Origin: Ruminococcus sp. UBA3855
GTDB lineage: Bacteria; Bacillota; Clostridia; Oscillospirales; Ruminococcaceae
Direction of reading: 5' to 3'
Length of the DNA: 56,348 nucleotides
Assembly (NCBI GenBank): GCA_002392545.1
Contig: DGHF01000136.1
Span: forward strand, 7,932-64,279
The notes beneath the pieces were generated by a model. It was not told the DNA's origin and made no database searches. It saw only the letters and a program-made list of their open reading frames with translations. Below, in pieces: positions 32,024-34,365 of the stretch. A program made the translations under genes and the position numbers. Position 1 is the stretch's first letter, and each line of letters begins with the position of its first letter.

Positions 32024-32064
32024 AATTAAAAAACTCCTTTCTGAAATGGGTATTTTAAGGGGGT

Positions 32065-32098
32065 ATGGGGGAATTCTCCCAAGCCCCTTTATCTAAAT
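32065..32098. repeat. Short (hairpin-less) copy of the repeat unit found at 32839-33030
   Basis: ATGGGGGAATTCTCCCAAGCCCCTTTATCTAAAT matches the two ends of the long units (AATGGGGGAATT... and ...CCCCCAAGCCCCCTTTATTTAAAT) but lacks the central ~65 bp. Confidence 0.6.
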
Positions 32099-32817
32099 AT
32101 CACCCATAACACCCCATAAATCACAGGCTGATGAATGACATAAATTTCCAGCGCATGACACCCAATCCAATTCAATGGCGAAATCCCTTTCCAGCGGACA
32201 GAAAGAATTTTCTCCCCTGCCACCTGATACAGATAGAATCCTGTCAAAAATAAAAATAACCACGGTATCAATGAAAAATAATCCGTCGAATAAAATCCCA
32301 TATGCGGAAATCCCAGATATGCCGTCAGATAATTCCGGTATAACCATTCGGGAAGTTTCAACAGCAGATGCGTGAAAATGCCTAAATATCCCTCATTGAC
32401 GTGACGTGTGAACGCAAACAGCCCGTAACTCACCAACAGCCCCACAATTGCCGGAACTTTTTTCAGGTACGGTTTCAAAGCCCCCACCATTAACATACTT
32501 GAACCAATCAAAGTCAATACCCCAAACAGAATTAAATCCTCCGGCATGAATAGCAGTGTGACCAATGTCACACCCATGCCCAAGGCGAACACAATCCCTC
32601 CACGTTTCAGGGTATGCCTTCCCATCCCTGAACAGAACCCCGAAAGCGTGATAAATGTGCAACATATGCACTGTTGCCAGATGTAAGCCCCATACCCAAA
32701 ATACCATTCCCAATTGACCCCGAAAATATAAACCAAATCCCAGACTGCATGAAATAACACCATATTAATGACTGTAAAGCCTCTGATGGTATCCAGAAGC
32801 GAACAGCGTTCTTTCAT
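32089..32817 (-). CDS. DUF1624/heparan-alpha-glucosaminide N-acetyltransferase-like membrane protein
   Basis: 242 aa, multi-TM. The N-terminal LLDTIRGFTVINMVLFH pattern is typical of the DUF1624 acyltransferase-like family. GAGGAG RBS. Confidence 0.65.
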   Translation of the reverse strand: MKERCSLLDTIRGFTVINMVLFHAVWDLVYIFGVNWEWYFGYGAYIWQQCICCTFITLSGFCSGMGRHTLKRGGIVFALGMGVTLVTLLFMPEDLILFGVLTLIGSSMLMVGALKPYLKKVPAIVGLLVSYGLFAFTRHVNEGYLGIFTHLLLKLPEWLYRNYLTAYLGFPHMGFYSTDYFSLIPWLFLFLTGFYLYQVAGEKILSVRWKGISPLNWIGCHALEIYVIHQPVIYGVLWVIFR

Positions 32818-32838
32818 GTGAAAAACTCCTCTCTATCT

Positions 32839-32935
32839 AAATGGGGGAATTTTCGCCAGAAAGTCTTAGTGCAGATTGCTGAAACTAATGCAATCTCCGC
32901 TAAGGGCGAAACTTTCCCCCAAGCCCCCTTTATTT
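32839..32935. repeat. Tandem structured repeat, unit 1 (78-nt imperfect hairpin at 32843-32920)
   Basis: Outer stem GGGGGAA.TTTCGCC / GGCGAAA..TTCCCCC. Inner stem CTTAGTGCAGATTGC / GCAATCTCCGCTAAG. Loop contains TGAAACTAA. Confidence 0.75.
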
Positions 32936-33030
32936 AAATGGGGACAAATTCCCTTTGAAGCCTTAGCACGAACTTCCTGAAACTAACGCAGTTCGCATTA
33001 AGAGGGCATTTTTCCCCAAGCCCTTTTATA
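32936..33030. repeat. Tandem structured repeat, unit 2 (78-nt imperfect hairpin at 32940-33017)
   Basis: Same architecture as unit 1 and the same loop TGAAACTAA. The inner stem CTTAGCACGAACTTC / GCAGTTCGCATTAAG differs from unit 1 by paired (compensatory) substitutions. Confidence 0.75.
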
Positions 33031-33058
33031 TTATACATGATTCCGGAAAATCTGTCAA
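33030..33058 (-). promoter_or_regulatory. Sigma-A consensus promoter reading through the tandem hairpins toward the DUF1624 gene
   Basis: Minus strand TTGACA (33053-33058), 17-bp spacer, TATAAT (33030-33035). Confidence 0.6.
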
Positions 33059-33076: not shown

Positions 33077-33105
33077 TTGACATTTCACGAGAAAAGTGAT
33101 AAAAT
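33077..33105 (+). promoter_or_regulatory. Sigma-A-type promoter for the PLP-enzyme gene (divergent, back-to-back with 33030-33058)
   Basis: TTGACA, 17-bp spacer, TAAAAT with TGn. Confidence 0.6.
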
Positions 33106-33156: not shown

Positions 33157-34365
33157 ATGAATCAGGAAAATGAACACGTTTCCGACAGTTGGAGTTTTAC
33201 CACTCGTTCCATTCATGTAGGAAGTGAGCCGGATTCTGCCACAGGCGCAGTTGAACCGGCAATTTATATGGCGAACAGCTTTCAACTCCCCTATGACCCC
33301 TCAACAATGAACTGGTCAGCATCCGAAGCCAATATTTACACCAGAAACGGCGGTGTCAATCAGGGTATGCTGGAAAAGAAGCTTGCAAACCTTGAAGGCG
33401 GTGAAGACTGCGTAGTCCTTGCCAGCGGTGTGGCTGCATTGTCCGCCCTCTTCTTTACCAAGCTGAAAAAGGGCGACCATGTAATTTTCTCCACAGTCAC
33501 CTACATTGCAACATACAGAATTTTCAATGAACTCTGGACAGAAAAATGGGGCATTGAAACTTCCATTGTCGATTGTACAGACATCGAGGAAATCAAAAAG
33601 GCTATCCGCCCCAATACCAAGTTGATTCATTTCGAAACCCCCGGAAATCCAACTCTCTGCATCTGCGACATTGAAGCCATTGTGAAACTCGCTCACGAAC
33701 ACGGAATTCTGGTTTCCGCTGACAATACATTCTCCTCCCCCTACAATACCAGACCGCTGGAATATGGTGTTGATTACGTCGTTGAAAGCTTGACAAAATA
33801 CATCAACGGTCACGGCGATTCCATGGGCGGTGCAGTTATCGGCAATCATGAGGATATGGACAAAATCCGTTATCAGGCACAAGTCAACATTGGTGGTTGT
33901 ATCAGCCCATTCAATGCATGGCTCATCATGAGAGGGTCTCAGACGTTTCCTCTGCGTATGCAGGTACACAATGACAATGCCTTAGCCGTTGCACAGTGGC
34001 TCGAAAAACAGCCTTGTGTATCCTTTGTGGCTTACCCCGGACTGGAAAGTTTTAAGGGGCATGACATCGCAGTCAAGCAGATGAAGCACGGTTTCGGCGG
34101 TGTGCTGTCATTCGGCTTGAAGGGTGAACATGATTTATATAACCGTGTTGTCACTCACCTGCATGTATTCACCTCTGCGGTATCGCTGGGAAATGCAGAA
34201 AGCCTGATTGTCTTCTTGGGTGAAGACGACGAAAGAATGTATCTGTACCCGCAGGAATTCCACGGCGGTTTCTACCGTGTAGCTATCGGCATTGAAGACA
34301 AGACTGACCTCATCAACGATTTGAGACAGGCATTTCAGGCGGAGGGTCTGGAAACTGTCGATTGA
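33157..34365 (+). CDS. PLP-dependent Cys/Met-metabolism enzyme (methionine gamma-lyase / O-acetylhomoserine sulfhydrylase family)
   Basis: 402 aa. Family pattern: TRSIHVG, VESLTKYINGHGDSMGG (PLP Lys) and SLGNAESLI. Confidence 0.8.
   Translation: MNQENEHVSDSWSFTTRSIHVGSEPDSATGAVEPAIYMANSFQLPYDPSTMNWSASEANIYTRNGGVNQGMLEKKLANLEGGEDCVVLASGVAALSALFFTKLKKGDHVIFSTVTYIATYRIFNELWTEKWGIETSIVDCTDIEEIKKAIRPNTKLIHFETPGNPTLCICDIEAIVKLAHEHGILVSADNTFSSPYNTRPLEYGVDYVVESLTKYINGHGDSMGGAVIGNHEDMDKIRYQAQVNIGGCISPFNAWLIMRGSQTFPLRMQVHNDNALAVAQWLEKQPCVSFVAYPGLESFKGHDIAVKQMKHGFGGVLSFGLKGEHDLYNRVVTHLHVFTSAVSLGNAESLIVFLGEDDERMYLYPQEFHGGFYRVAIGIEDKTDLINDLRQAFQAEGLETVD

Follow-up and report, generated by a model that had tools for sequence, protein, structure and literature searches.

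Two tandem hairpins upstream of an HGSNAT-type acyltransferase gene of Ruminococcus as probable copies of a lineage-restricted interspersed repeat

The short region upstream of a membrane acyltransferase gene (HGSNAT_cat, or DUF1624) in Ruminococcus sp. UBA3855 contains two adjoining hairpins of closely similar design, which raises the question of whether they represent a leader RNA dedicated to this gene or copies of a sequence that is dispersed through the genome. The initial annotation of the window, that is, the whole 56,348-nt stretch of DNA analyzed here, considered both readings, proposing a leader or stability element at the RNA level, or a palindromic DNA repeat of the REP or MITE type. 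The most probable answer, to which a probability of roughly 0.8 is assigned here, is that each of the two units represents an independent copy of an interspersed repeat of about 92–105 bp, which is restricted to a lineage, contains no gene, folds as a hairpin, and is comparable to the REP/BIME, BOX, or MITE sequences of other bacteria.

The hairpin pair and its transcriptional setting

The two units (Table 1), each of about 97 bp, can be aligned with one another over 98 columns, with a mean column identity of 81%. Each folds, on either strand, into a single long imperfect hairpin interrupted by a one-sided 7-nt bulge, which occupies the same position in both units. The hairpin of unit 1 (32843–32920) is followed by the 3' tail AAGCCCCC, and that of unit 2 (32940–33017) represents a different subfamily, distinguished by its stem (AATTCCC/GGGCATT). 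The fold of unit 1 reaches −41.3 kcal/mol (z = −6.5) on the plus strand and −39.1 kcal/mol (z = −4.2) on the minus strand, and that of unit 2 is weaker, at −24.1 kcal/mol (z = −2.4) and −27.3 kcal/mol (z = −1.7), respectively. The loop decamer, CTGAAACTAA, is found at exactly two sites in the window, 32879–32888 and 32977–32986, against a chance expectation of 0.11. The alignment, the folding, and the decamer count bear out the initial description of two tandem hairpin units with a shared architecture, bulge, and loop, and the reading of the arms confirms the three exchanges reported in the inner stem (A-T to G-C, G-C to A-T, and T-A to C-G), all of which preserve pairing. On the minus strand, the stems are followed by the tail AUUUAAAU or AUUUAGAU, with no U-tract directly after the stem, and the promoter and terminator scan found no terminator-like site at either hairpin, in agreement with the initial view that they do not resemble simple terminators.

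The identity of unit 1 is 0.78 to its nearest copies, which are located on other contigs, versus 0.61 to unit 2, and the nearest relatives of unit 2 are found at C228:26498 (0.86) and C27:2438 (0.84). As each unit is closer to copies elsewhere than to its neighbor, the pair is not the product of a local duplication.

Table 1. Features of the HGSNAT locus, with positions in the window, and TnpB elements of the two high-copy genomes, located by contig.
Feature	Position	Strand	Basis
Repeat unit 1	32836..32932	+ (family-alignment orientation)	Pair alignment, folding, covariance-model (CM) match 32834–32930, 82.3 bits
Repeat unit 2	32933..33029	+	Pair alignment, folding, CM match 32931–33036, 95.9 bits
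Sigma-70-type consensus promoter, TTGACA-17-TATAAT	33058..33030	-	−35 at 33058–33053, −10 at 33035–33030; 12/12 matches (scan)
HGSNAT_cat (DUF1624) membrane acyltransferase gene	32089..32817	-	PF07786, E = 1.1e-35, full-length match
Divergent promoter of the Cys/Met-metabolism PLP enzyme gene, TTGACA-17-TAAAAT	33077..33105	+	11/12 matches; outside the repeat
Cys/Met-metabolism PLP enzyme gene	33157–34365	+	Domain search
Core-less repeat remnant, tmk/HGSNAT spacer	32044..32098	+	CM match 32051–32098, 19.9 bits, E = 0.0036
TnpB elements	Own genome C199 (~4.0–5.5 kb), C58, C60, C170; sister species (G020) C13:60550, C7:105564, C127		

The initial annotation had also pointed to a consensus promoter on the minus strand that would read through both hairpins into the DUF1624 gene, and the scan recovered this promoter with every consensus position matched. 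From the usual spacing between the −10 box and +1, the transcript is predicted to begin at approximately 33023, at the first minus-strand bases of unit 2, which form the foot of the distal hairpin. The predicted 5' UTR of the HGSNAT gene, of about 205 nt, contains both repeat units, which would be expected to appear in the transcript as two stable hairpins. Only about 19 nt, including the ribosome binding site (RBS; AGGAG at 32826–32830, minus strand), separate unit 1 from the ATG, so that the transcription of the gene must presumably cross at least this unit. In the promoter spacer, the 15-mer ATGATTCCGGAAAAT (33037–33051) is similar to the 15 nt with which the Cys/Met gene begins, ATGAATCAGGAAAAT (33157–33171), 120 nt away, a likeness that is probably due to chance. 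The remnant in the tmk/HGSNAT spacer is a 55-nt mini-palindrome of the element ends, and overlaps the HGSNAT stop codon.

Hairpins placed between a consensus promoter and an RBS, with covarying stems and identical loops, might be expected of a gene-specific cis-regulatory leader RNA, such as a riboswitch or a protein-binding attenuator. This structure, however, offers neither a terminator/antiterminator alternative nor a U-tract, and in the comparison with Rfam 15 that the initial annotation had proposed, the window region and five copy-bearing loci from three genomes returned only spurious matches far below the gathering threshold, with no family being matched. The distribution of the element, presented below, bears on the same question.

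Copies in the genome, in related genomes, and on phages

The genome that contains the window (G000) is a metagenome-assembled genome (MAG) of 2.6 Mb in 249 contigs, 80% complete, and that of a sister species (G020) is 95% complete, with both being fragmented, which leaves repeats and insertion sequences (IS) under-assembled in the counts that follow. The genome searches by BLASTN and covariance model suggested initially revealed that copies of the element are numerous, intergenic, and dispersed, and that they face either way relative to genes. Unit 1 alone recovered approximately 25 near-full-length copies by blastn, on many contigs, and iterated nhmmer found 46 copies in 31 clusters, reaching 52 at convergence, while a covariance model (R1) built from an alignment of 32 main-type copies (A2) gave 50 matches. 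A rough examination of their context, based on the longest ORFs, placed 30 of the 31 clusters between ORFs, and the long ORF that spans the remaining cluster is taken to be spurious.

Several clusters occupy operon-like spacers, such as that of ruvC-ruvA, and many copies are found at contig ends, as expected of a repeat that breaks assemblies. The copies occur singly, in tandem arrays with a maximum of five units (contig C36), or in head-to-head inverted pairs (C65:33555/33646 and C228:4775/4873), and they are often located immediately past the stop codon of the preceding gene, at a distance of 0–15 nt in all 10 cases in which the left gene is on the plus strand. The flanking genes are unrelated, with copies being located both upstream and downstream of genes, and in 23 independent contexts with co-directional flanking genes, 10 copies were in the sense and 13 in the antisense orientation.

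A second, unrelated dispersed repeat is found in the same genome, consisting of a motif of about 16 nt, GATAAATC(G/A)GAATTTA, with at least 20 occurrences, usually in inverted pairs 140–290 nt apart (for example, C55:2559/2703, C73:9244/9383, C127:11114/11314, C169:656/947, C214:4530/4743, and C65:2804/3005), which often enclose GGTGACGGGGTGACGG. These pairs look like a separate MITE-like family, and in the sister species some copies of the hairpin repeat are located inside them.

The sister species returned 53 matches to R1, and nine more genomes of the genus contained weaker, diverged matches (1–8 per genome), in which the ends and outer stems are common and the interior is different. In 24 other families of the order, represented by one genome each, no match was found. 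The end pattern ATGGGGGA-N60-90-TCCCCCAWRCCCC has 31 matches in the own genome, versus none for the reversed control, and is present in 8 of 50 genomes of the genus. Its single match in 248 genomes of 165 other genera of the family is GC-rich and looks like a chance occurrence. A scan of all species representatives, checked with R1, detected true copies in MAGs from rumen and gut, under the labels Ruminococcus sp., R. flavefaciens, or Oscillospiraceae bacterium. Three genomes from outside the set of 50 (G322–G324; Ruminococcus sp. RGIG7051, RGIG4914, and UBA4383) contain 10–12 pattern copies each, in a version (e.g., L056:461–574) that keeps the ends and outer helices and has an apex of about 35 nt that is not self-complementary and contains the direct repeat CGTTCACTC twice. 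Given these carriers beyond the 50 genomes, the superfamily defined by the ends is patchy, but wider than a single genus. In a termite-gut MAG (G325), only a 25-nt mini form, ATGGGGGATTCTCCCCCAAACCCCC, was observed.

The comparison of orthologous sites revealed polymorphism in the presence of the repeat. At the window site, the spacer of the sister species measures 58 nt, versus 224 nt here, and has no repeat, with the HGSNAT and Cys/Met genes being syntenic (76% and 92% identity, respectively) and the diverged flanks leaving the junctions inexact. In the tmk/HGSNAT spacer, the situation is reversed, with a full copy in the sister species where the window has only the 55-nt remnant. A genome-wide comparison of 20 loci of the sister species with the own genome found shared orthologous copies, insertions present only in the sister species, extra copies present only in the own genome, and several decayed solo ends or mini-palindromes. 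One of the insertions exclusive to the sister species faces a truly empty, compact spacer (C232:31064–31080). The solo ends that resemble the remnant of the window are located at C145:5570–5605, C82:9155–9185, and C25:21008–21020, and mini-palindromes of the element ends, of about 40 nt and with no GTAG, also exist. The cleanest chromosomal case is a 91-bp copy at C228:4776–4866, which is absent from the sister species and lies head-to-head directly beside an existing copy. No target-site duplication is evident there in the comparison with the sister species, and none was consistent across six other filled and empty pairs.

Copies are also found on phages, within genuine contigs of tailed phages. 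The end pattern was detected in 15 contigs of IMG/VR, four of which have main-type copies, scoring 95–117 bits. One of these copies separates a head-tail adaptor gene from the structural gene that follows it, within a module that also includes the major head and tape-measure genes, and another is flanked by a phrog_2698 gene and a DNA helicase gene, next to Sak4-like and primase genes. A related prophage in the own genome, on contigs C180 and C35, has structural genes (head-tail adaptor, major head, and tape measure) that are 80–95% identical to those of its relatives UViG_3300032037_000120 and 3300032038_000354. At the orthologous spot of the prophage, which is empty, the two genes abut, and in the filled phage, the element is flanked by an imperfect duplication of about 26 nt, which preserves the end of the upstream gene together with the RBS and start of the downstream gene; in this single case, the duplication may be either mechanistic or selected. 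No match was found by blastn of both units against cultured phages and plasmids. The sharing of MITEs by bacteria and their viruses has been described in general, in a study in which Ruminococcus is mentioned only as a host genus (PMC11602168).

These data support the REP/MITE-like reading included in the initial annotation, given the dispersed copies in both orientations, the empty site of the sister species, and the copies on phages. They do not support its alternative of a leader RNA that serves the DUF1624/HGSNAT gene specifically, considering that the genes beside the element are unrelated and number in the dozens, that it faces either way and lies upstream as well as downstream of them, and that no such leader precedes the HGSNAT ortholog of the sister species, which makes a gene-specific regulatory RNA a highly improbable explanation of the pair.

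Conservation of the structure and strand asymmetry

The repeat is non-coding, and is delimited by conserved 5' and 3' ends, (A)ATGGGGGA and TCCCCC-AWR-CCCCC in the copies of alignment A2, with ATGGGGGA/TCCCCCAWRCCCC as the end pair. The ends form terminal inverted repeats (ATGGGGG/CCCCCAT), and their complementarity runs inward through the whole element, forming three stacked helices of 5, 8, and 5+8 pairs, with a one-sided 7-nt bulge (consensus GWGAAAG) and an A-rich loop (consensus AAAAACTAAY). In this 26-pair structure, standard pairs occupy 92.7% of the cells of A2, versus 39–54% with slid partners. Changes on both sides are found at 15 of the 26 pairs, and the observed covariation score was reached by none of 500 column shuffles (RNAalifold was also run). 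Inspection of A2 by eye distinguishes a minimum of eight apical-stem sequences that all still pair, so that the covariation signal reflects more than two subfamilies. Further subfamilies retain the ends and the outer helices, and have other interiors.

The selection-like compensation that had been read from the two units of the window is thus seen to extend to the family as a whole. The initial annotation had further considered that many dispersed, randomly oriented copies with no covariation would indicate a plain REP or MITE sequence. The dispersal and the random orientation were indeed observed, but the covariation is present rather than absent. This combination of conserved unpaired bases and covarying stems is also typical of functional RNA, which counts against the reading of the units as a repeat. 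Complementarity in a palindrome can be restored by hairpin-internal repair, and not all compensation need represent selection.

The two strands of the element are not equivalent. In an alignment guided by the model, which comprises 56 copies of the own genome and the sister species (A6), the apical helix has 30 A:C cells and a single G:T cell. An internal loop with CA opposite CA is found in 39 of the 56 copies, with Watson-Crick pairs in most of the others, and on the complementary strand, this loop becomes a tandem G.U/G.T wobble. When folded with RNA parameters, the complementary strand, with the loop UUAGUUUCA, is the more stable in 55 of the 56 copies (mean −44.4 versus −37.1 kcal/mol), and with DNA parameters, it is the more stable in 51. 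For the window units, this better-folding strand ("F") is the minus strand of the window. Given that the wobble pairs are confined to the complementary strand, which is also the more stable, the hairpin is shaped for one particular strand.

A strand-specific hairpin with G.U-type wobbles and very stable stems (mean −44 kcal/mol) could be understood as a host-recruited element that acts in the RNA, as an mRNA-stabilizing stem-loop, an RNase III site, or a weak terminator, with the family being kept by host selection. Roles of this kind have been proposed for the REP, BOX, and Correia elements, and the position of many copies 0–15 nt past a stop codon would be consistent with them, as would the predicted start of the HGSNAT transcript at the base of the distal hairpin. 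The well-folding strand, however, is the mRNA-sense strand of the co-directional flanking genes in only 13 of 23 contexts, the presence of the element varies freely at orthologous sites between sister species, decayed remnants are common, and the distribution within the genus is patchy, all of which makes the maintenance of the family by such a host function unlikely.

The conserved structure and loop might also belong to a family of small RNA genes that are present in many copies, each transcribed independently. The −10 box in the window ends about 8 nt before the minus-strand 5' end of the element, and good promoters are found at this spacing in two further copies. When the copies were scored, however, a promoter with at least 10 of 12 matches was found on the minus-strand 5' side of only 3 of about 33 copies, the opposite flank had the same distribution of scores, and there was no promoter enrichment at either end. 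The hairpin is followed by no terminator, and the tandem arrays have no spacers that could accommodate a promoter, so that small RNA genes can hardly account for the family. The strand signature most likely reflects a single-stranded step by which the element itself propagates, rather than a function in the host mRNA.

Spread of the repeat and comparison with known systems

As an interspersed repeat, the element would multiply within genomes and insert in intergenic DNA, often right beside an existing copy, and may also ride on phages, with its propagation by way of a single-stranded intermediate leaving the strand signature. In the window, two copies of different subfamilies would have landed between the promoter and the RBS of the HGSNAT gene, by chance in a 5' UTR, and any effect on this gene, most plausibly on the stability of its mRNA, would be a by-product of the insertion.

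The search for a mobilizing enzyme refers to the assembled sequence, and draft MAGs under-represent IS elements, a limit that applies to each of the negative results that follow. The Y1/RAYT transposase (PF01797) was not found in either the own genome or the sister species, which are the high-copy genomes, and is present in 6 of 41 genomes of the genus, with no relation to the repeat load. IS110 has one copy in each of the two high-copy genomes, but is also present in genomes that have no repeat, and no repeat copies were found near the Y1 or IS110 genes of relatives. TnpB genes (IS1341-like, TnpB-only) number four in the own genome and five in the sister species, with none in three low-copy genomes of the genus. 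The 1.43-kb TnpB element that was delimited by comparing the two species (94% identity between them), however, is unrelated to the repeat at its ends, and no TnpB gene has a repeat copy nearby, so that this candidate was also rejected. IS1182-type DUF772 transposases are found in three carrier genomes, where the contigs are cut within the gene and the ends are not readable. A search of the own assembly for a partner IS, based on repeat-like end pairs 0.6–3.5 kb apart, yielded no candidates.

A more speculative reading, and a rather doubtful one, is that of a structured element that moves between Ruminococcus chromosomes and phages, spreading by a strand-specific ssDNA or RNA intermediate with an enzyme outside the known hairpin-dependent transposases. 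If this were the case, the bulge, the loop, and the tandem wobble would be the recognition features of a novel system of mobilization or host-phage conflict.

With the interspersed repeat as interpreted here, the annotation of the covarying hairpin pair as a regulatory RNA for the DUF1624/HGSNAT gene should be avoided. The repeat of rumen Ruminococcus appears to be undescribed, with no Rfam family matched and no paper on such a repeat in this genus found in the literature. It breaks MAG assemblies, marks strain-level variation, and links hosts to phages, and its strand-specific hairpin, with no recognizable transposase, poses a small mechanistic question on the spread of repeats in the Firmicutes.

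Among the known systems, the REP/BIME (REPIN) sequences share with the Ruminococcus repeat the form of imperfect palindromes outside genes, which number in the tens, are often located just past stop codons, and are restricted to a lineage, as well as the tandem or inverted arrays of different subtypes and a strand-specific hairpin compatible with an ssDNA substrate. The REP/BIMEs of Enterobacteria and Pseudomonas are mobilized by RAYT (Y1 HUH) transposases. The repeat described here, however, is longer, at about 95 bp versus the 20–40 bp of REP, is built of three helices that include a bulge and a conserved loop, and differs from the REP-RAYT system in having no GTAG-type 5' tetranucleotide and no Y1 gene in the high-copy genomes, and in being found on phages. 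Like REP, it is extragenic, has a high copy number, and is clustered in arrays.

Similarities with the MITEs (e.g., RUP) and the Correia/NEMIS elements of Neisseria include a size of about 100–150 bp, inverted ends, a non-coding sequence, an intergenic location, and insertion polymorphism, as well as co-transcription with the neighboring genes in the form of hairpins, which is predicted for the window units. The terminal inverted repeats, small size, absence of coding capacity, and insertion polymorphism at orthologous sites of the Ruminococcus repeat are all features of MITEs, but its complementarity is found throughout, and not only at the ends, and with regard to two defining features of a classical MITE, no consistent target duplication of fixed length (such as one of the TA type) was observed, and no partner IS was found, with the draft assemblies limiting the second of these comparisons. 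The PATEs, which are derived from IS200/IS605, are similar with respect to the absence of target duplication in the cleanest case, the strand-specific hairpin, and the TnpB genes present in both high-copy genomes, whereas the ends of the TnpB element are dissimilar to the repeat, and the Y1 TnpA that PATEs require was not found in these genomes.

The BOX elements of Streptococcus pneumoniae, with the structure boxA-(boxB)n-boxC, are also intergenic repeats of a Firmicute, with conserved terminal modules, a variable interior, and a long stable hairpin. They occur in both 5' and 3' untranslated regions, and can alter the expression of their neighbors, and no transposase is known for them. There is no sequence similarity between the two, however, and the interior is replaced in the Ruminococcus repeat, whereas it is reiterated in BOX. 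The strand-specific wobble signature and the phage-borne copies observed for the Ruminococcus repeat may also distinguish it from BOX. Despite the differences from the REP-RAYT system in size, 5' motif, and RAYT gene, the behavior of the Ruminococcus repeat is closest to that of REP/BIME and pneumococcal BOX.
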